DNA of 64,000 bases from an uncultured Actinomycetes bacterium (GCA_963780745.1 CAWACT010000007.1:32909-96908), one strand, 5' to 3'. Counted from the first letter of the stretch, positions 18,249 through 31,914 are shown. The notes: generated by a model not told the origin, from the letters alone. Numbers and translations are program-made.

Positions 18249-18872
18249 CTAGACGATCCTTCTGTCGGTTGCCCAGCGGGCGAGCTCGTGGCGGCTGGAG
18301 AGCTGGAGCTTGCGAAGTACCGCAGAGACATGCGACTCCACCGTCTTCACCGAGATCTCGAGACGGCGGGCCACCTGTTTGTATGCGAAGCCGCGGGCGA
18401 TGAGGCGGAGCACCTCCCGTTCCCTCGGGGTCAGCTGGTCGAGGTCAGGATCGGAAGCGGGGACAGATCCGGCGAAAGCATCGAGCACGAACCCGGCGAG
18501 CCGGGGGGAGAACACGGCGTCTCCCTCGTTCACCTGGCGGATCGCTTCCACCAAGTCGGCTGGCGCTATCGACTTCGTCACGTAGCCGCGGGCGCCGGCG
18601 CGAATCATGGCGATCACGTCCTCGGGCTCGTCCGACACTGACAGGGCCAGAAAGCGCACCTCGGTGTCGGCCAGGTTGCGCACTACGGCGATCCCGCCCC
18701 CGCCCGGCATGTGGACGTCGATCAGCACGACATCGGGTTGCGTCGCCCGGATTGCGTTGACCGCATCGTCCACGTCTCCAGACGATCCCACCATCTCGAA
18801 ATGCTCGCCCAACTCCGATCGCACCCCGGCGAGGAACAGCTCGTGGTCGTCGACGAGAAACAGCTTGATCAT
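18249..18872 (-). CDS. LuxR/NarL-family response regulator
   Basis: MIKLFLVDDHELF...VVLIDVHMPGG receiver domain and an HTH LuxR tail (LTPREREVLRLIARGFAYKQVARRLEISVKTVESHVSAVLRKL). Confidence 0.85.
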   Translation of the reverse strand: MIKLFLVDDHELFLAGVRSELGEHFEMVGSSGDVDDAVNAIRATQPDVVLIDVHMPGGGGIAVVRNLADTEVRFLALSVSDEPEDVIAMIRAGARGYVTKSIAPADLVEAIRQVNEGDAVFSPRLAGFVLDAFAGSVPASDPDLDQLTPREREVLRLIARGFAYKQVARRLEISVKTVESHVSAVLRKLQLSSRHELARWATDRRIV

Positions 18873-20089
18873 CCACGCTCCAACCTGAGGTGCACCTCGG
18901 TTCCCTCCCCCGGCACACTGCTCACCTCTGCGGTCCCGCCGTGGCGGCTCATCCGGGCAACGATCGACTCGGCGATCCCCCGCCTGTCGGGTGGGATGGC
19001 GCCGGGGTCGAAGCCCTTCCCCTGGTCGGTCACCCACAAGTCGACGGCCTCGTCCCCCACCTCGAGATACACCGAGACCGACCCGGCGCCGGAGTGTCGC
19101 GCCGCGTTGATCATCGCCTCGCCGGCGGCCCCCACCATCGCCCGCGTCGTATCGTCGAGCGACCTATCACCCACCGCGACCACCTCGACCGGTACATCGA
19201 AGTCGGTCTCGACCCGGTCGGCAGCCGATCGCAGCGCTGCGACCAGTCGCTCACCCTCGACCTCCGGACCCTTCTCATAGAGCCAACGGCGCAACTCCCT
19301 TTCCTGCGCCCTGGCCAGCGTCACCACCCTTCTCGGATCGTCGGTGCGCTGCATCAAGGCGAGCGTCTGCAGCACCGAATCGTGGAGATGGGCGGCCAAC
19401 TCGGCCCGTTCCTCTTGTCGGATCCTCTCGGTGCGCTCCCTACCGAGATCGCGCGCCAGACCCACCAGCCACGGACCGAGCACCAGGGTCACCCCGGCGG
19501 CAGTGACCAATGCCGCCAGGACGACGGTGCCCAACCCGGAGATGGCGTCGATTCCCCCGGCAAACAGCCCCAGCCCGACAAGGAGAAGCAGTCCGCCCAC
19601 GATGAGACGCCCCACCGATCTCTCCCCCCGGTCGCCGGGGAGCAGGAGTCGTGCCTCGCCCCGCCGCCTACTGCTCTCGGAGCGATCCCACATCGCTGCC
19701 AGACCGAAGGCGACCGCGCTTCCGGCAACCATCACGACGTCACCGGGCCAGACCCCGATGCCTCGCAGCACCAGCAATGCACCGGCGAAGACAAGGAGAA
19801 GCCCCAGCCGTTGGCGCCGGTCGATCCCCGGGACGGGCGCAGACTCAGGGCTTGCCTGCTCGGGGAGTATCGCCCAGAGGCCAAGGTAGAGAAACAGACC
19901 CAGCCCATACACGAGTCCAAGCGAGACGAACGCGGCCCTGACGTACACCGGCTCGATCCCGAGCGAGCGGCCCAACCCGGCGGCGACACCTCCGAGGACG
20001 CGTTGCTTTGCGTCGCGATGGATTTCGAGGCGCGGCTTGCTGGCCGTGGCAGATTCCACGGCTCGATGATCCCATGATGAGCGTTGCAC
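18869..20089 (-). CDS. sensor histidine kinase with N-terminal PspC domain (HisKA_3 + HATPase); start GTG/TTG near 20089-20095
   Basis: PspC block (RDAKQRVLGGVAAGLGRSLGIEPVYVRAAFVSL...LGLWAILPE), four TM helices, then AAHLHDSVLQTLALMQ H-box and an HATPase tail. It overlaps the regulator start by 4 nt. Confidence 0.8.
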   Translation of the reverse strand: MQRSSWDHRAVESATASKPRLEIHRDAKQRVLGGVAAGLGRSLGIEPVYVRAAFVSLGLVYGLGLFLYLGLWAILPEQASPESAPVPGIDRRQRLGLLLVFAGALLVLRGIGVWPGDVVMVAGSAVAFGLAAMWDRSESSRRRGEARLLLPGDRGERSVGRLIVGGLLLLVGLGLFAGGIDAISGLGTVVLAALVTAAGVTLVLGPWLVGLARDLGRERTERIRQEERAELAAHLHDSVLQTLALMQRTDDPRRVVTLARAQERELRRWLYEKGPEVEGERLVAALRSAADRVETDFDVPVEVVAVGDRSLDDTTRAMVGAAGEAMINAARHSGAGSVSVYLEVGDEAVDLWVTDQGKGFDPGAIPPDRRGIAESIVARMSRHGGTAEVSSVPGEGTEVHLRLERG

Positions 20090-20152
20090 CGACAATGGGT
20101 GATCACCCTCGCCGCGCCGTCTGGGGCTAGGGGACTCTGGGGGACATCCCCG

Positions 20153-21367
20153 ATGGACTCCGAAGCCTGCGCCCTCCAGGATGAAGCCATGGATGACGAA
20201 GCGACCACAACAGCCACCGAGATACCACCGCCTCCGCCAGATCCGGCGACTGGCCCAATGCCCGCCCCGTCCCTCCACCGGTCGAGATCCCACCGTGTCG
20301 TCGCCGGGGTAGCCCGGGGGATCGCCGATAGGTTCGGGGTCGCCCCCTGGGTGGTCCGAGCCGGGTTCATCGTCCTCGTTTTCGCCGCGGGTGTCGGAGC
20401 CCTGCTCTATCTGGCTGGCTGGCTGCTGATCCCCGAAGAGGGGACCGACAGGTCGGTCCTCGGTATCTCGTCGCCGACCGATACGTCGCTCATCCTCGGG
20501 GTGGCATTGATCGGGATCGGGCTGGCGGTTCTCCTCGGCTGGATGGGAATCGTCCGCGGCGACCTGGTCGTCGGGACGGCGTTGGTGGTGTGCGGGGTCC
20601 TTCTCTATCGGTGGAACCCATCGCGGCCCGATGCCGACGTGGGGCAAACGGCGGACATCTACGCCACCGATGGATCACAAACGGCGATCGTCGAGCGGCA
20701 ACCGGCGGTGCCCCCTCCGCCTCCGCCACCTCCGAAGCCGAGGAAGCCGCCGTCGATGCTGGGGCGCCTGACCATGGCGCTCGCTTTGGTCGCAATAGGG
20801 GTGGTGGCGCTGCTCGACGTGACCGGAATCCTCGCCCCCACCGCCCTCCACTATCTCGGCATCGGTCTCGGAGTCATCGCCCTCGGTCTACTGATCGGCT
20901 CGTTTTGGGGCCGGGCGAAATGGCTGGTGATCCCCGGACTGCTCATTCTCCCCCTGCTATTCGCAGCCCGCTTCTCCCAACTGACCTTGGACTACACCGC
21001 CACCAACCAGGTCATCCGCCCGCTAGAGGTAGACGACCTGCTCCCCGAGTACCGCATCGAAACCGGATCCCTGCTCCTCGACCTCGGTGCGCTCGATCTC
21101 GACGGAGCAGCGGTAGCGGTCGAGGTGTCGGTCGGTGCCGGCGAGCTGATCGTGCAACTCCCCGATGGTGTCGCAGTCGACGCCGTGGTGACCGCCCAGG
21201 CGGGCGAGATCGAAATCCTCGGGCAGCACGCTGCCGGGCTCGACATCCGGCGAGCGATTTCATATGCCGGCGATGAGGGCTCGGTCGACCTCGATGCGTC
21301 TGTGGGCATTGGCACCGCAGAGGTCCGGCTGGGCCGCGAGAGACCGTTTCTCGATCCGAGGAGATGA
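20153..21367 (+). CDS. PspC-domain membrane protein with LiaF-like C-terminal domain; divergent from the kinase
   Basis: HRSRSHRVVAGVARGIADRFGVAPWVVRAGFIVLVFAAGVGALLYLAGWLLIPEE PspC domain, a poly-Pro linker, TM helices, and a C-terminal beta-rich DUF. Confidence 0.7.
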   Translation: MDSEACALQDEAMDDEATTTATEIPPPPPDPATGPMPAPSLHRSRSHRVVAGVARGIADRFGVAPWVVRAGFIVLVFAAGVGALLYLAGWLLIPEEGTDRSVLGISSPTDTSLILGVALIGIGLAVLLGWMGIVRGDLVVGTALVVCGVLLYRWNPSRPDADVGQTADIYATDGSQTAIVERQPAVPPPPPPPPKPRKPPSMLGRLTMALALVAIGVVALLDVTGILAPTALHYLGIGLGVIALGLLIGSFWGRAKWLVIPGLLILPLLFAARFSQLTLDYTATNQVIRPLEVDDLLPEYRIETGSLLLDLGALDLDGAAVAVEVSVGAGELIVQLPDGVAVDAVVTAQAGEIEILGQHAAGLDIRRAISYAGDEGSVDLDASVGIGTAEVRLGRERPFLDPRR

Positions 21368-21600
21368 ACGTGCCAAGCGAACGCCACAGATTCGATGTCT
21401 GGTCCTTCATGTTCGGCGCTTCCTTCGCCGTATTGGCCGCTCTGACTATTTGGCTCCCGGTCGAGCCCGGCTGGGCGATCACGATCGGGCGGGCCATGGG
21501 GCCGGCCATCCTCGTGCTCATCGGGATCGGACTGCTCGTCTCCGTTGTGCAGGCGCGCCGCCCGGAGCAAGCCGGCGACCCGCTACCCGCCGAGCTGTTC
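21364..21600 (+). CDS. small two-TM membrane protein, translationally coupled (ATGA) to the PspC gene; 3' end undefined because it overlaps the fasciclin gene
   Basis: MNVPSERHRFDVWSFMFGASFAVLAALTIWLPVEPGWAITIGRAMGPAILVLIGIGLLVSVVQARR. The ORF is open to 21717, reading antisense to the fasciclin gene. Confidence 0.25.
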
Positions 21601-22308
21601 CGGGGGACTGAGCACTTGGTCGATGACGTGGATCACGCCGTTGCCGGCGGTGATGTCGGTCTCGACGACGATGGCGTCACCGACCATGACCGTCTCGCCC
21701 TCGACGGTGACCGGTAGGTCGGACCCCTGGGCGGTTGCGAGCGAGCTCTCGGTGACCAGATCGGCCGCTGGGTACTCGCCCGGGACCACGTGGTAGAGCA
21801 GGAAGGGCTCGAGCTGCGTCGGGTCGGCTAGCAACTCCTCCAATGTCCCCGTGGGGAGCTCGGCAAACGCATCGTCGGTTGGGGCGAAGAGGGTGTAGGG
21901 ACCTGCCCCTGCCAACTCCTCGGTCAGTCCGGCGGCTTCGATGGCGCTGAGCAACGTGGCGAACCGCCCGTCTCCTGCCGCAACATCCACGATGGTCTCC
22001 CCGCCGTCGGCGCCGGTGTCGGCGGTGGCAGAACCGGTGTCATCGGTCCTGGGCTCGGTGACGTCGGTGGAGGTGTCGTCGGTCCGCGGCTCGGTGTCGT
22101 CGGTCGTCGTGTCGTCGGTACGCGGCTCGGTGTCGTCCGTACTCGGTTGAGTATTAGCAACGCCGACGGTTGTCTCGACGCCTGGCACGGTCGTGTCGGT
22201 GGCGGTCCCTCCGTCGCAGGCGGCCAGCACCACCGCCAAGACGAGCGCAAACCAGATGGGGACGCGCCATCCCACGATGCGCTCCTTTCCTCGATGGCCA
22301 GCTGTCAT
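21583..22308 (-). CDS. fasciclin (FAS1) domain lipoprotein with TDDTEPR low-complexity repeats
   Basis: Lipobox LAAC, repeated TDDT(E/T)PRTDDT, and a FAS1 core (FTLFAPTDDAFAELP...GNGVIHVIDQVL). Confidence 0.75.
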   Translation of the reverse strand: MTAGHRGKERIVGWRVPIWFALVLAVVLAACDGGTATDTTVPGVETTVGVANTQPSTDDTEPRTDDTTTDDTEPRTDDTSTDVTEPRTDDTGSATADTGADGGETIVDVAAGDGRFATLLSAIEAAGLTEELAGAGPYTLFAPTDDAFAELPTGTLEELLADPTQLEPFLLYHVVPGEYPAADLVTESSLATAQGSDLPVTVEGETVMVGDAIVVETDITAGNGVIHVIDQVLSPPEQLGG

Positions 22309-22398
22309 CCCGTGACGCTAGGCGAACCGGGTCGGCGGTTCAGCCGCCGTCGCCCGGCTCCCTCGGCGCTCCGCCATCGGTGCCCCAAGTTCATTTCA

Positions 22399-22427
22399 TT
22401 GACTTGTATAGCTTGAGGACGCATAAT
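22399..22427 (+). promoter_or_regulatory. near-consensus sigma70/sigA-type promoter TTGACT-17 bp-CATAAT, about 60 nt upstream of the small-protein gene; RBS GGAGAGGGGAGG
   Basis: ttgact (22399-22404), 17-nt spacer, cataat (22422-22427). This is conspicuous in a 70% GC genome. Confidence 0.5.
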
Positions 22428-22491
22428 CGCAATGCGCATCAGGAGGGGCCAGCTGGGGCTTTCGTCCCGCTTGGGAGAGGGGAGGTTGGCT

Positions 22492-22866
22492 ATGGCCGGT
22501 AAGGTTGCAGCGATCGACGAGGAGCTACTGCAGAGGCCATTGGGCGAAATCAGTGCTTCGCAGTTCCTCCAGGTTCTCGGATCGATGGATCAAAGCAGTT
22601 CGGACCTAGTGCTTCTGCCCGACAAAAAGAAGTACGAGTTGTGGGTTGATGAAGCCGTGATCGATAAGATCAACGTCGCTGACCTACTTGAGAAGATTCG
22701 CGGTGAAAAGAAGAAGCTGGAATTGGAGAAGCGTACCGTTATCGAGCACTTCAAGAAGTACACAGAGTTCGAATTTGACCCTGAAGATCTAGTGACCAAT
22801 CCGGCAATTCGCGAGCAGCTGGTTGCAGAGATCTCAACAGAGGTGATGCGTCGTCTAGGTAGGTGA
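22492..22866 (+). CDS. 124-aa Lys/Glu-rich small protein with low GC (~50%); candidate precursor or substrate of the downstream ATP-grasp enzymes
   Basis: MAGKVAAIDEELLQ...EKIRGEKKKLELEKRTVIEHFKKYTEFEFDPEDLVTNPAIREQ... Its stop overlaps the next gene's start (GTGA). The T/K and D/E-rich segment KKYTEFEFDPED is reminiscent of graspetide cores. Confidence 0.45.
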   Translation: MAGKVAAIDEELLQRPLGEISASQFLQVLGSMDQSSSDLVLLPDKKKYELWVDEAVIDKINVADLLEKIRGEKKKLELEKRTVIEHFKKYTEFEFDPEDLVTNPAIREQLVAEISTEVMRRLGR

Positions 22867-23603
22867 CCGGCCACGTTGTCGTGGTCGGCGAATCAGCCGA
22901 CCAACTCATCGACCCTCTCACCGAGGCGCTACGCCGGAACGGACTAGGGACCACCCGGTATGACGCACGGGGAATGGCTGCGGCAGACCTGGCAGCAGAC
23001 CACGTTGCTGCCAGTATCGACGGGCAGCCGGTTCAAGCTGTGGTGTTCCGGCTATCACCGAACCTCTTGATCGCCCCTGCATTCATAGCCTCCGACCGGG
23101 GCTTCGCCGCCGCTGAATTGCGAGCGTGGTGGGCACATGTCCTCGCGTTGCCTCATGTGGCATCGGTGAATCGGTCTAACGCCGAAACATGGTTCGGATT
23201 TGCAGAGCCCGGTTATTGGCGTTCCTATCTGACCTCCGCTGGTGTCGCGGTAGCTCCGCTACGGCTGGGGCTGCCCGGTGACGACGGATGGTGGATCAGG
23301 TGGTCGGGGGAGGTCGCCAACATGCCTGATTCGATGACCGGCGGGGCTTTGGGGGCTGCTTGGGTGATGGCAGATGAGCTGCGCCCAGTCCTATGTTGCG
23401 CCGGGGAGCCTGTCGGCGGCGATCCCGAGCTAAGGCCTGCGGCCAACGCGCTTCTCCGCGCGGGGATCGTCCTGAGCGAGTTGATCGTGGACTCGCGCGA
23501 TCGCGTGGTGACCGTGTCCACACTGCCGGCCGTGGCGCTCGACTCGGCTGAGGAGGCGGCCGCACGAATTGTCAAGTGGCTCCATGCTGCTATTGATCGG
23601 TGA
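22863..23603 (+). CDS. ATP-grasp-like protein lacking catalytic motifs (degenerate or pseudo-enzyme partner)
   Basis: Its N-terminal pre-ATP-grasp region is similar to the next gene. Its C-terminus (LRAGIVLSELIVDSRDRVVTVSTLPAV...EEAAARIVKWL) parallels the ATP-grasp C-domain, but the E-x-N residues are replaced (VSTLP). Confidence 0.45.
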   Translation: MTGHVVVVGESADQLIDPLTEALRRNGLGTTRYDARGMAAADLAADHVAASIDGQPVQAVVFRLSPNLLIAPAFIASDRGFAAAELRAWWAHVLALPHVASVNRSNAETWFGFAEPGYWRSYLTSAGVAVAPLRLGLPGDDGWWIRWSGEVANMPDSMTGGALGAAWVMADELRPVLCCAGEPVGGDPELRPAANALLRAGIVLSELIVDSRDRVVTVSTLPAVALDSAEEAAARIVKWLHAAIDR

Positions 23604-24651
23604 CCCTGGCGACTTGACCGCGGCCTATTTGGGCTGGCTCGGAGCCCGACGTGGACTTGAGGTTCATTTCCTCTCCGAACAGCAGTTCGGAGTCGATTGG
23701 GTCGTGGATGCCGATGAACAGTCGGGGCACGTGGCTATCACTTCTGGGGATGAGCCGCTGAATATGGAGGCGATGCTTGGCGCGGCTATTCGCTTCAACC
23801 CCGATCCTCCCTTGCCCGACGGTTGGACCATGAGTGATTCCGCTCGTCAGATGTTCCTACTCGAGCGAAGGTCAGCGATCAGCCATGTCGTGGAGATGAG
23901 CCCGGGGAGGATTGTGAATCGTCCTTCAGCCGGCCGATCGAATGCGTCCAAGCCACTTCACATGACGCGCCTTGAGGCGATTGGCTTCGAAGTGCCTCCT
24001 TGGGTGGCGTCCAGCAACCCGCAAGCCGTCGAGGGCTTCTTGGCGACCTGTCCTGAGGGAGCCGTGGTCAAAGCGACGTCCGGGTTGCGTTCCCATGTGC
24101 GGATGGTCGGAAACGAGTACGTCGACCGACTGCGATTGGGAACAACTCCTTCTGTTATTCAGCGGTATATCGCCGGTTATGAGGCGCGAGTCCACGTCGT
24201 TGGCGACTGGGTTTTCGGATCTCGAGTCGACGCCGCTGCAGTCGACTACCGGTTCGATGAGGCGCCGGTCCGCTACCAGCCGGTCGACATACCGCCAGCC
24301 ATCGCTTCGTTGTGTCGGGAAGCCGCCCGGTCGGAACGGCTTGAGCTTGCTGGTCTTGACTTCAGAGTGAGCGCCGACGACCGATGGTGGTGTCTCGAAA
24401 TGAACCCGGTACCCACCTTCCTGCCGTACGAAGCGGCAACCGGTCAGCCAATCGGTGATGCCGTAATCGATCTCATAACCGGGACTCGGGAACACGCCGA
24501 TCGCAGCTCACCATTGGCCCTCTGGATGGCCCCGGCGTACAGCGAAGAAGCAGCAGCCACACACGACCAAAGCCGCGATGCGGATAGGACCGTCGCCGGG
24601 GACTTTGCGACTAGCGACGATCAGGGTGCTGAGGGGCACCAGCCGACCTGA
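23584..24651 (+). CDS. ATP-grasp ligase of the RimK/microviridin-maturase (MdnB/MdnC-like) type
   Basis: IGDPGDxxAAYLxxxLxxRG N-terminal domain; NRPSAGRSNASKPLHMTRLEAIGFEVPPW; VIQRYIAGYEARVHVVGDWVF; LAGLDFRVSADDRWWCLEMNPVPTFLPYEAATGQPIGDAVIDLI, a classic ATP-grasp C-domain with E-x-N. It overlaps the previous gene by 20 nt. Confidence 0.7.
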   Translation: MLLLIGDPGDLTAAYLGWLGARRGLEVHFLSEQQFGVDWVVDADEQSGHVAITSGDEPLNMEAMLGAAIRFNPDPPLPDGWTMSDSARQMFLLERRSAISHVVEMSPGRIVNRPSAGRSNASKPLHMTRLEAIGFEVPPWVASSNPQAVEGFLATCPEGAVVKATSGLRSHVRMVGNEYVDRLRLGTTPSVIQRYIAGYEARVHVVGDWVFGSRVDAAAVDYRFDEAPVRYQPVDIPPAIASLCREAARSERLELAGLDFRVSADDRWWCLEMNPVPTFLPYEAATGQPIGDAVIDLITGTREHADRSSPLALWMAPAYSEEAAATHDQSRDADRTVAGDFATSDDQGAEGHQPT

Positions 24652-24725
24652 CCGACAACGGCAACGTGGTCATCGGCCTCTTCGGACACTCGAACCGGGC
24701 CCTCTCCTGATCGACGACCTCGGCC

Positions 24726-25691
24726 TCAGGAGACCTGTGCTCGGATGTAGCCGGCGACAGTGTCCGGGTAGTAGTAGAGGAAATGTCCGATGTCGTCGAT
24801 CACGTCGGGCACCGTGCCCCGGACCGCAGCAAGTCGCGTCGTTATGTCGCGCATGGCCGGGATCGTCTTCGATCCGAAGGAGAAGCGGATGTCGGCCGGG
24901 GCGGCAGCCAAAGCGGCCTCTTCGACGGTCTCAAAGGTCAGGATCGGGATGTCGTCGAGCAGGAGCGTTTTGGCATTGCCCTCCTCCCGCGCGTCGTACC
25001 ACGACCTCGATTGCGGCGCTTCGGTGGGAGTGTCAGGCGGGCGGTCAGTGGTCAGGGCAGCAGCGCGCAACAGCGCCGCGTAGGCACCGGCCCAGTCGTC
25101 AGGGTTCGAAGCGAGATGCTCGGCGGCACCCTTGTGCAACCGCTGCTGAAGCTCGACAGCCTCCGGGATCAAGCGGAGGTACCCGGGCTCGTAGACAAGG
25201 GCGCGGCGGACCACCTCGGGGTGTCGCAGCGCCAGTTGGAGGGTGATGTTCCCACTGGAGCTGTAACCAAGTGCAACAGCGTCGCCCAGGCCGAGCGCCT
25301 CGAGGAGACCGGCGGCGTCATCGGCATGTTGGGCCGAGCCCCCGCCTGGCCAATCGTCCGCACCGCTGCGCAGGGTTCCGCGGCGGTCGTAGGTGACCAC
25401 AGTGAAGCCCGTGAGACGCTCGGCGATGGGACGCCACCCCTCGGCGTCCTCGGCACCGGCGTGGATCAGCAGCACCGCCGGGCCGGAACCGCGAACCTCG
25501 GTGTACAAGGTTGTTCCGTTCGCCGGGACACGAACAATCCGCGGTGGTTCGGCGTCGGGTAGCGCCTCGGGATTTGTTCTCAGATCCCGTTCAGCGATGT
25601 CTCTCACTCCCTGCAGTTGGCGTTCTGCGTTCTGTGTCATATGCGCATGGGTGAAACTCTCAGCCGTGTCTTGTCCTATTGGTATGTCCAT
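24726..25691 (-). CDS. alpha/beta-hydrolase fold protein
   Basis: AVLLIHAGAEDAEGW...GYSSSGNITLQLA (GxSxG nucleophile elbow). The start was chosen at MDIPIGQ; the longer ORF to 26036 is an upstream extension. Confidence 0.7.
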   Translation of the reverse strand: MDIPIGQDTAESFTHAHMTQNAERQLQGVRDIAERDLRTNPEALPDAEPPRIVRVPANGTTLYTEVRGSGPAVLLIHAGAEDAEGWRPIAERLTGFTVVTYDRRGTLRSGADDWPGGGSAQHADDAAGLLEALGLGDAVALGYSSSGNITLQLALRHPEVVRRALVYEPGYLRLIPEAVELQQRLHKGAAEHLASNPDDWAGAYAALLRAAALTTDRPPDTPTEAPQSRSWYDAREEGNAKTLLLDDIPILTFETVEEAALAAAPADIRFSFGSKTIPAMRDITTRLAAVRGTVPDVIDDIGHFLYYYPDTVAGYIRAQVS

Positions 25692-25930: not shown

Positions 25931-27015
25931 TTGACCCTTGGAGGCCGATCGTCACACGACCAGAGCCCGTGGATGCTGATCTGCGGAAGCTCCGAAGTGG
26001 TGGTGGAGTACGCCTCAGATGAGATTCGAGCGGCATTGCGGTTCACCCGGAGAGCGGCCGACTCCGCCCTCGACCTCGCTCTGGGTCTGCAGCGGCTCCC
26101 CAGAGTGTGGGAAGCGTTGGCATCAGGTGCCATCGATCTTCCCCGGGCCCGTGTGCTCTGCGAGGGGACCATCACACCTCGACGACGACGAGGCTAGGGA
26201 AGCGACCGATCTGGTTCTTGGTGCCGCTCCCCGGTTGACGACCGGCCAGGTGGCCGCTCGTATCAGTCGGGTCACCTTGGGGTTGCACCCCGACGACGCC
26301 GCCCGCCGCTATGAGACCGTGGTGGAACAGCGCCAACTGGTGTTGCACCAGGGAGCCGATGGCACCGCCGAACTGGCCGCCAGCTGCCTCCCGCCGACAA
26401 AGCAGTAGCCGCCATGAGACACGTCAACCGGCTCGCCCACAATTTGAAACGGGAAGGGGACCCCCGCAGCCTCGACCAACTCCGGGTCGACATCACTCTG
26501 GACCTGATGTGCGGGGGAGCACCCGGGGAGGGGACCGGTGTTCTGGGACGGTGGAGATCACCGTCGACCTCGCCACCCTCATCGGACTGTCCGACACCCC
26601 GGGGGACTCAATGGCTATGGACCGGTGATAGCCGACGTCGCCCGCTAGATCACCAACCGTCAACACGACTCGCAGTGGCGTGGTCACCGTCACCCACCCC
26701 GACGACGGGTCGGTGCTGTGGAACGGCACCACCCGGAGAAGACCGAGCACCGGGCTCCGCCGCTCGGTGGAAGCCCGGTCACCCTCCTGTGTCTTCCCCG
26801 GTTGCCGCATGCCGGCCGCAGCCTGCGACCTCGACCACACCGTCGACCACGCCCGCGGGGGACCAACCACCGAAGTCAACCTGGGACCGCTGTGCCGGCA
26901 CGACGACATGGTCAAGCACCGTGGACGGTGGAAACTACGGCGAACCCCAAACGGCTACACATGGACCAGCCGACTCGGACACACCTATCACACCGGGACA
27001 GACCCGCCGTCATGA
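25931..27015 (+). pseudogene. truncated, multiply frameshifted DUF222/HNH-endonuclease (REP13E12-like) element, copy 1
   Basis: Fragments in 3 frames: ALRFTRRAADSALDLALGLQRLP..IDLPRARVLCEG; VTVTHPDDGSVLWNGTTRRRPS..CVFPGCRMPAAACDLDHTVDHARGGPT..GPLCRHDDMVKHRGRWKL. These parallel the copy at 54987-56255. Confidence 0.65.
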
Positions 27016-28970: not shown

Positions 28971-29048
28971 TGGTGGGCCTGGCAGGATTTGAACCTGCAA
29001 CCGACGGATTATGAGTCCGCTGCTCTGACCGAATTGAGCTACAGGCCC
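28971..29048 (-). tRNA. tRNA with CAU anticodon (elongator Met or Ile-lysidine type), CCA encoded
   Basis: Cloverleaf folded by hand: acceptor GGGCCTG/CAGGCCC, D-arm GCTC/GAGC, anticodon loop CTCATAA, T-arm GCAGG-TTCAAAT-CCTGC. G1-C72 is paired, so it is not an initiator. Confidence 0.85.
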
Positions 29049-31304: not shown

Positions 31305-31434
31305 CGGTCGCCTCCTCTCTTCCTGTCCCTTCCGCCGGTCGCATGTTCTCACAGCGGCTCGGGAGTGCGGTCACCATTCGTTTTGAGACTCACCACCTGG
31401 GGTACCCTGGTGAGTGAATCCAGGAGCAAGGCTT

Positions 31435-31695
31435 ATGAGAGTTTGGATCGACCAAGACCTGTGCACCGGGGACGGGATCTGCTCGGAGATCGCCCCCGAT
31501 GTCTTTCAACCTCGGGACGACGGTCTCTGGGTGGTGAAAGAGGAGGCGTCGCACTTCGGGGCCAAAAAAGTCTTCGATGGCAACGATGGGCCCGAAGGGG
31601 CGGACGGGGTGGCCCGGGTCCCGGGCGGCCAAGAGGACATAACCATCGAAGCCGCCGAGGAGTGTCCCGGCGAGTGCATCATGCTGGAGCCCTGA
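31435..31695 (+). CDS. small single-cluster ferredoxin
   Basis: MRVWIDQDLCTGDGICSEIAPDVF ... ECPGECI. An AGGAG RBS sits 7 nt upstream. Confidence 0.6.
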   Translation: MRVWIDQDLCTGDGICSEIAPDVFQPRDDGLWVVKEEASHFGAKKVFDGNDGPEGADGVARVPGGQEDITIEAAEECPGECIMLEP

Positions 31696-31733
31696 ACCCC
31701 GTTCCGGGTCCCCGCTACCATCCCGGGTCCCGT

Positions 31734-31806
31734 TCCGGGGTAGCTCAATTGGCAGAGCAGTGGACTGTTAATCCATGTGTTGAGAGTTCGAGTCTCTCCC
31801 CCGGAG
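31734..31806 (+). tRNA. tRNA-Asn (GUU)
   Basis: Acceptor TCCGGGG/CCCCGGA, D-arm GCTC-AATTGGCA-GAGC, anticodon loop CTGTTAA, T-arm GAGAG-TTCGAGT-CTCTC, discriminator G. Confidence 0.9.
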
Positions 31807-31914
31807 CAAAGCTGTCTGACCAGGGCATTTGGAGTTTGGTTTGGTCCCCGGCAGTAGGCAATGGCATGACCCCCCTTCCGGTAGTGTCGGAACCAGCCGC
31901 AATGAGAGGCCATT

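Follow-up and report, generated by a model that had tools for sequence, protein, structure and literature searches.

We analysed a 64,000-nt stretch of DNA from an uncultured Actinomycetes bacterium (GCA_963780745.1, CAWACT010000007.1:32909-96908; hereinafter the window), in which three plus-strand open reading frames (ORFs), together spanning positions 22492-24651, lie between a minus-strand fasciclin gene and a minus-strand alpha/beta-hydrolase gene. The three genes, hereinafter designated g1, g2 and g3, encode a small protein, a shortened ATP-grasp-like protein and a complete ATP-grasp protein, respectively (Table 1). An earlier note, made from the sequence, had read them as a candidate graspetide-type cluster for a peptide made on the ribosome and modified after translation (RiPP); the analysis described here leads to a narrower proposal, a three-gene module that may build isopeptide bonds into g1. 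As that note had it, the genes overlap start to stop and are translationally coupled: the g1 stop and the GTG start of g2 share the sequence GTGA, and the g2 and g3 reading frames overlap by 20 nt. The 355-aa length of g3 agrees with a database copy (P0001) and with the start of all its relatives.

Table 1. Coordinates and strand of the cassette genes, their conserved elements and their flanks in the window
Feature	Coordinates	Strand	Remarks
g1	22492-22866	+	124 aa, Lys/Glu-rich; predicted substrate (precursor)
g1 N-terminal helical segment	22507-22584	+	residues 6-31, AAID..RPLGELSAAEFLxAL; conserved; proposed leader-like recognition element
g1 motif 1	22621-22653	+	D44-K-K-K-Y-E-L-W-V-D-E54; family consensus [DE]KKKΦELW-x-[DE]
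g1 motif 2	22705-22731	+	E72-K-K-K-L-E-L-E-K80; family consensus EKKKΦELE
g2	22863-23603	+	246 aa, GTG start; shortened, predicted ATP-grasp pseudoenzyme and g3 partner
g3	23584-24651	+	355 aa from ATG; predicted intact ATP-grasp ligase, graspetide-maturase clade
Putative promoter, TTGACT-17-CATAAT	22399-22427	+	sigma-70-like; 10/12 consensus match; 65 nt upstream of g1 start
Shine-Dalgarno sequence, GGGGAGG	22479-22485	+	read from sequence; 6 nt before g1 ATG
Fasciclin gene	21583-22308	minus	upstream flank of cassette
Alpha/beta-hydrolase gene	24726-25691	minus	convergent flank of cassette

The G+C content of g1, g2 and g3 is 0.507, 0.644 and 0.609, respectively, against 0.673 for the window, and at third codon positions their G+C reaches 0.62-0.68, compared with 0.74-0.88 for five genes nearby. 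No other place in the 64 kb has so low a G+C (z -5.4, -4.5 and -4.1 at sliding-window sizes of 375, 750 and 2200 nt), which confirms the low-G+C character pointed out earlier. The element proposed as a near-consensus promoter unusual in this genome is the sole match of at least 10/12 on both strands of the whole window, a uniqueness that is not independent of how AT-rich the locality is; in a 5 kb scan, one such site was found against 0.8 expected by shuffling, and the count by itself is not significant. Its promoter function is predicted from the consensus match. The strong ribosome-binding site claimed for g1 was confirmed as the Shine-Dalgarno sequence in Table 1. Rfam returned no regulatory RNA in the 5′ untranslated region of the cassette.

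Among NCBIfam models, g3 is matched best and nearly end to end by TIGR04187, the SAV_5884-type ATP-grasp ribosomal peptide maturase (E 6e-32), followed by MvdD (6e-10), RimK (4e-6) and then MvdC; LysX gives an E-value of 0.089, and Pfam returns just a sub-threshold ATP-grasp match. The order TIGR04187 then MvdD recurs in 18/18 g3 relatives (best relative E 2.7e-39). When a profile of the g3 family is compared with the PDB, six graspetide macrocyclases come first, namely PsnB (3.6e-29), 9BOU (PruB; 1.3e-23) and then MdnC, CdnC, MdnB and AMdnB, some 20 orders of magnitude better than RimK (3.5e-8), with LysX weaker still (7e-5, or ~1e-4). K168, Q198, D264-F-R266 and E277-x-N279 are invariant among the 18 relatives, and the DFR motif has been called critical for graspetide synthetases by Carter et al. 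(PMC13097080). The view of g3 as a complete ATP-grasp protein nearest to RiPP maturases is therefore upheld, the best NCBIfam and PDB matches all being RiPP macrocyclases; by its sequence, g3 is an intact ligase of the graspetide-macrocyclase clade with predicted activity, an assignment that holds at clade level only. The last ~40 residues of the window g3 (~316-355; 24532-24651) form an acidic tail, …EEAAATHDQSRDADRTVAGDFATSDDQGAEGHQPT, which is absent from relatives and extends into the convergent intergenic region.

Single-sequence scans of g2 gave no match in Pfam, NCBIfam or PADLOC, and a g2 profile gave no significant match among PDB sequences; the relationship to ATP-grasps is visible by profile-profile comparison and fold alone. 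An AlphaFold2 (AF2) model of g2, built on a 64-sequence alignment, has a predicted local distance difference test score (pLDDT) of 95.5 and a predicted template-modelling score (pTM) of 0.91. Foldseek places PsnB first (E 2e-10, query template-modelling score (TMq) 0.72-0.74); the top matches PsnB, AMdnB and PruB lie at E ~1e-10 to 1e-9 and TMq 0.68-0.74, RimK, MdnB/C and CdnC come further down, and identities are 10-15% throughout. By hhalign, g2 residues 4-246 align with residues 6-307 of the g3 family (probability 88.8%, E 2.5e-6). In this alignment the ATP-binding Lys is not conserved in the g2 family, a hydrophobic residue and a two-residue gap take the place of the g3 DFR, variable residues (T-V-S in the window copy) stand where g3 has its Mg ligands E-x-N, and the central domain is shorter by ~55 residues than in the g3 family. 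Fold model, Foldseek and profile alignment thus agree with the previous description of g2 as an ATP-grasp-like protein that has lost E-x-N, and they identify it as a predicted pseudoenzyme, a catalytically dead, trimmed ATP-grasp paralogue. An exhaustive HMMER search collects 163 cluster representatives in the g2 family, nearly all ~250 aa, with some shorter fragments. At one locus (L001, GCA_963853535.1; 7264-8017) the g2 homology jumps to another reading frame and runs through an in-frame stop, with g1 and g3 apparently intact.

The remaining protein, g1, is Lys/Glu-rich as first noted and has no relatives in Pfam, NCBIfam or the PDB; a PADLOC scan gave nothing meaningful. Neither its profile nor its AF2 model matches the PDB, the fold search being of little weight with a model pLDDT of 63. 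Database homologues number 63 and are ~112-129 aa long; all begin MAxK..AAID, and a longer start at the ATG at 22432 was accordingly rejected. Conservation was counted over 65 unique homologues. In the N-terminal segment A7, I8, A22, F25 and L29 are near-invariant, and AF2 models its helices (residues 10-31) with more confidence than any other part of g1 (block pLDDT 86 and 79). Motif 1 shows full or almost full invariance at K45, K46, K47, E49 and L50, and 64/65 homologues have an acidic residue at positions 44 and 53; in motif 2, E72, K73, K74, K75, E77 and E79 are kept in 64-65 of the 65. W51 and L78 are listed in parentheses among the essentially invariant motif positions. The invariant residues of g1 are only six Lys, four Glu and L50, with positions 44 and 53 almost always acidic.

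The two motifs are thus copies of one pattern, acid-KKK-Φ-E-L, each with three Lys and three carboxylates, and they include the spacings K46xxE49 and K74xxE77. Both are the least confident segments of the AF2 model (pLDDT <50) and are modelled without secondary structure. Invariant Lys and Glu in disordered segments, next to a confident N-terminal helix, are the pattern expected of substrate loops rather than of a fold core. No conserved Ser or Thr occurs in the motifs among the 65 homologues, and because of this only amide (Lys-Glu/Asp) links would fit; the omega-ester option raised earlier is unlikely. The T/K/D/E-dense stretch HFKKYTEFEFDPEDLVT (g1 residues 86-102), previously favoured as the core, proved to be a variable, indel-rich linker. 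The protein terminates in ...RRLGR, with no acidic tail, and contains no Zn-ribbon or Cys cluster.

Homologous triads, which the earlier note had suggested looking for in other genomes, are widespread and strictly ordered. Seeded with g1, a scan over one genome of each species gave 11 loci, exact look-ups added 4, and a metagenome scan seeded with g3 gave 47; genes in the loci were mapped by hidden Markov model. All 11 g1-seeded loci are in metagenome-assembled genomes (MAGs) assigned to Gemmatimonadota, Nitrospirales, Vicinamibacterales, Pseudomonadota, 'Deltaproteobacteria', Saprospiraceae and Actinomycetes. The cassette has been seen only in metagenomes and MAGs of uncultured soil and sediment bacteria from at least six phyla, the host groups being Actinomycetota, Gemmatimonadota, Acidobacteriota, Nitrospirota, Pseudomonadota, Bacteroidota and 'Deltaproteobacteria', and this restriction may explain its absence from isolate-based surveys. 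Wherever a metagenome locus includes 1.2 kb or more of DNA upstream of g3, g1-g2-g3 occur in the same order and strand (26/26, some near-identical). The triad is also found in 14/15 of the other, genome or contig, loci; the fifteenth (L011, 5983-7219 on contig_22000 of an Actinomycetes MAG) retains only fragments of g1, g2 and g3, the whole cassette being pseudogenised. In L027, g1 is cut by the contig end, and in seven shorter metagenome loci g2 runs into it.

The three genes also diverge together, a point that the earlier note had wanted checked for the small protein. Across 30 loci, the pairwise identities of g1, g2 and g3 correlate with r 0.86-0.90 (Mantel p 0.001), g1 and g2 tracking g3 at r 0.87 and 0.90, respectively; g2 evolves fastest (mean identity 31%) and g3 slowest (49%). 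An all-against-all comparison of flanking ORFs detected no other shared gene, save in near-identical contigs and for generic signalling domains. Because no gene beyond g1-g2-g3 is common to the loci, the neighbouring hydrolase, which had been put forward as a leader peptidase, does not belong to the system; it is not conserved beside the cassette. Two hosts carry further RiPP-like genes next to the triad, namely three radical-SAM/SPASM genes accompanied by two ORFs of 72-73 aa in L014 (9499-16056), and LanC-like, APH and HopA1 genes in L015 (11601-14803); neither arrangement is conserved across loci.

Hosts span 30% to 77% G+C, and triad and flanks agree in composition at most loci (mean difference -0.011). 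The triad lies 7-13 G+C points below its flanks in the window and in the metagenome contigs L048 and L053 (8-13 points in these two contigs), and matches them in ~29 other loci. We accordingly read the low-G+C signal as a mark of recent transfer into this genome and not as a property of the family, and the three low-G+C cases suggest that a cassette otherwise resident in its hosts has occasionally, and recently, been transferred horizontally. Of the horizontally acquired island proposed before, the foreign composition in this genome is borne out; as a general feature it is not, since the triads of most hosts match the G+C of their flanks.

ATP-grasp enzymes convert a carboxylate into an acyl-phosphate that is then attacked by a nucleophile. 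In the mechanism we propose, g3 would, with ATP, turn the side-chain carboxylates of Glu/Asp in g1 into activated acyl-phosphates, and adjacent Lys epsilon-amines would capture these, giving isopeptide (omega-amide, macrolactam) bonds within, and possibly between, the motifs at residues 44-53 and 72-79. Docking would fall to the conserved N-terminal helix of g1, as a leader-like element. The role foreseen for g2 is that of an obligatory non-catalytic partner, either the pseudo-dimer mate of g3 or a substrate-presenting or stabilising subunit. The product would be a stapled small protein kept whole inside the cell rather than a cleaved, secreted peptide; it probably stays uncleaved and intracellular, since the module includes neither a protease nor an exporter. 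That g3, partnered by g2, installs Lys-Glu/Asp bonds in g1 as a self-contained graspetide-like module is, judged from sequence and analogy, somewhat better than an even bet (roughly 0.55). The small protein, the predicted active ligase and the degenerate paralogue of the earlier graspetide reading are retained on homology and gene context, and its core, its ester chemistry and its hydrolase are given up. The cassette is probably the undescribed variant there envisaged, g3 falling outside the described RiPP-maturase subfamilies.

Several observations weigh against this proposal. That same position of g3, below every curated cut-off, is one of them: it scores 111 bits against 350 for TIGR04187, 38.7 and 26.1 bits against 475 and 425 for the microviridin (MvdC/MvdD) models TIGR04184 and TIGR04185, and 26.5 bits against 143 for the RimK model TIGR00768. 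The conservation of g1 runs along most of its length, including the C-terminal helix, and inspection of the alignment revealed no clear leader signature of the Phhx(1,2)h or GG type. No peptidase, transporter/exporter or hydrolase is conserved in the cassette flanks. The residue count allows up to six links per g1 and does not give the ring topology. A g2-g3 complex is suggested by synteny, translational coupling and analogy, and the g2 frameshift in L001, which may be an assembly error or a decaying gene, could indicate that g2 is dispensable. Finally, a g1 that is long, conserved and lacks a leader signature, protease and exporter could be a protein partner rather than a substrate.

Other readings of the locus share much of this evidence. 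The least unlikely of them, still well short of an even chance, is that the cassette is a protein cross-linking system and not a natural-product cluster: a heteromeric enzyme/pseudoenzyme pair would build multiple isopeptide bonds with the twelve invariant Lys and Glu/Asp of g1, between motifs or between g1 molecules, and the intracellular stapled or polymerised small protein could serve, e.g., as a protease-resistant scaffold, an inhibitor or a stress material. That g3 and g2 act intermolecularly throughout, joining Glu of one g1 to Lys of another or g1 to cellular proteins in a Pup-like manner, we judge improbable. Two motifs with three invariant Lys and three acidic residues each do exceed the needs of small KxxE rings, they lie in exposed, unstructured segments between helices, and the lack of a protease or exporter suggests an intracellular protein product; the characterised enzymes of the nearest clade (PsnB, MdnB/C, CdnC, PruB, CorB and MyxF), however, all make intramolecular side-chain rings, and the neighbourhood shows no sign of target proteins or of a de-conjugating enzyme. 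Less probable again is a g1 that serves as a structural, regulatory or chaperone subunit of g2-g3, with the ligase acting on an unlinked peptide, protein or metabolite. Such a role would accord with conservation over most of g1, with predicted helices at both ends, and with an ATP-grasp branch that has truncated inactive ATP-grasps, in which precursors were not found and the substrates were proposed to be encoded at other loci (Makarova et al., PMC8939145). Against it, the invariant residues of g1 are of the donor and acceptor types used in graspetides and fall in its least ordered segments, no other conserved gene could supply a substrate, and a large structured precursor is on record in CorA.

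We would give poorer odds still to a RimK/TTL-like reaction in which g3 loads the Glu/Lys side chains of g1 with free glutamate, with some other amino acid or with a polyamine. RimK-family and LysX models and structures are detectable as more distant relatives of g3, and the clustered Glu of g1 recall glutamylation sites; both RimK and LysX nevertheless match far more weakly than RiPP macrocyclases (for RimK, 3.5e-8 vs 3.6e-29), g1 ends in RLGR and lacks a RimK-type C-terminal Glu tail, and the invariance of Lys and Glu within one short motif is most simply explained by their mutual joining. The pairing of a small protein with an ATP-grasp could also recall a LysW-like amino-group carrier, with g1 bearing a biosynthetic intermediate attached by a LysX/ArgX-like g3. 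LysX is, however, among the weakest matches, no LysY/Z/J/K-type gene lies near any locus, and g1 has neither a Zn-ribbon nor a C-terminal acidic tail of the EDWGE type; the missing pathway genes and carrier tail effectively refute this reading, and the LysW/RimK-like alternative offered earlier loses its footing on the same grounds. We retain isopeptide formation within g1 by g3 and its partner g2 as the preferred reading.

If true, this reading would define a graspetide-type family that has a pseudo-ATP-grasp subunit of its own, a substrate of 12-14 kDa in which two KKK-x-EL-type motifs allow purely Lys-Glu/Asp chemistry, and no protease or exporter. It would build on very recent evidence that partner proteins are needed by some graspetide synthetases, provide a clean natural enzyme/pseudoenzyme pairing in the ATP-grasp superfamily, and could yield a compact three-gene tool for placing isopeptide staples in proteins.

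Elsewhere in the window, the only two tRNA genes are tRNA-Met(CAT) at 28971-29048 (minus strand) and tRNA-Asn(GTT) at 31734-31807 (plus strand), 4-7 kb downstream of the cassette, the latter adjoined by a further low-G+C patch (~0.58-0.60) at ~31400-31750. Gene fragments of the DUF222/HNH-endonuclease type occupy several frames at 25931-27015 (plus strand), with a Pfam DUF222 match for 25931-26197 (E 2.7e-4) and an HNH-like CDLDH...H motif in the ORF at 26680-27015; they are probably a decayed mobile endonuclease. A second G+C dip (0.565) occurs at ~25526, just upstream of these fragments. Upstream of the cassette, at 18869-21367, two divergent genes encode PspC-domain proteins, a histidine kinase on the minus strand and a membrane protein on the plus strand, in what looks like an envelope-stress-type pair, unrelated to the cassette.

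The cassette falls in a recently expanding, well-understood chemical class and has the main components of a graspetide cluster: a clade-level ligase with intact ATP and Mg residues, an associated precursor gene, and conserved donor and acceptor residues, the association of g1 with the ligase being established by synteny and its precursor role predicted. Leader signatures and an associated protease or exporter, which the cassette lacks, are a graspetide feature and not an obligatory one; several published groups consist of synthetase and precursor alone. Neither the PFFARFL-type leader nor the TxKxPSDx(D/E)(D/E) core of microviridins (motif definitions in PMC12848669) is present in g1. The representative precursors of graspetide groups 25, 27-30 and 32-43 (Carter et al. 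2026) do not resemble g1, and a full-text literature search for the g1 motif strings returned no paper.

The closest structural counterpart is the plesiocin system PsnB/PsnA (graspetide group 2; PDB 7DRM-7DRP), PsnB being the best structure match of the g3 family by sequence and of the g2 model by fold. As proposed for the cassette, a single ATP-grasp modifies repeated core motifs in the precursor PsnA; unlike the cassette, the cluster contains no dead paralogue, and PsnB is only ~14% identical to g2. Plesiocin cores use Thr-Glu esters, whereas the g1 motifs have no conserved Ser/Thr. RimK, the S6 poly-glutamate ligase, belongs to the same superfamily, acts on a protein substrate and can be picked up at E 1e-6 to 1e-8; the RiPP macrocyclases are much closer, and RimK adds free Glu to a C-terminal Glu tail. 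A 'branch 8' described by Makarova et al. 2022 (PMC8939145) comprises loci with a two-domain truncated inactive ATP-grasp, a peptidase link and no predicted precursor; the cassette has no peptidase and a clear candidate precursor, and the two sets of loci may overlap.

For the chemistry and the size of the precursor, the nearest parallel is corallotide (graspetide group 15; PMC13097080), in which the TIGR04187-type ATP-grasp CorB forms five KxxxD lactams on the 22 kDa precursor CorA. Like the cassette, this system pairs a large precursor carrying repeated Lys...acid motifs with a ligase whose best family match is TIGR04187. It differs in its hydroxylation by a 2-oxoglutarate-dependent (2OG) oxygenase, in a cluster that includes this oxygenase and a beta-lactamase-fold protein and no dead ATP-grasp, and in its restriction to Corallococcus, and g3 scores far under the TIGR04187 cut-off. 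In the myxomiditide pathway (PMC12848669), the ATP-grasp MyxF makes Lys(i)-Glu(i+3) lactams on (KxxE)n motifs, the spacing of K46xxE49 and K74xxE77 in g1, on precursors that are, unlike g1, of the microviridin class with a PFFxRFx leader and a TxKxPSD core.

Precedents for a partnered ligase come from the same two studies. MyxD1 and MyxD2 are ATP-grasp paralogues that co-purify and work only together, MyxD2 depending on partner ATP-grasps (PMC12848669); all four Myx ligases keep their catalytic residues, whereas g2 has lost them and is 70-100 residues shorter. The rosaritide synthetase MirB, whose product has three lactone rings, is inactive and insoluble without MirC, a strictly co-occurring, co-purifying non-catalytic partner (PMC13097080). 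The role of MirC is the one proposed for g2, and MirC has a SurA/PpiC-like chaperone fold, not that of an ATP-grasp. Strict co-occurrence, overlapping frames and co-divergence tie g2 to g3, and g2 may be a required, complex-forming partner as in MirB-MirC and MyxD1-MyxD2; the kind of partner, a dead ATP-grasp, differs. By analogy, direct precedents now exist for each unusual element of the cassette, in the KxxE lactams, the paralogue complexes, the 22 kDa precursor and the partner-dependent synthetase of these systems.

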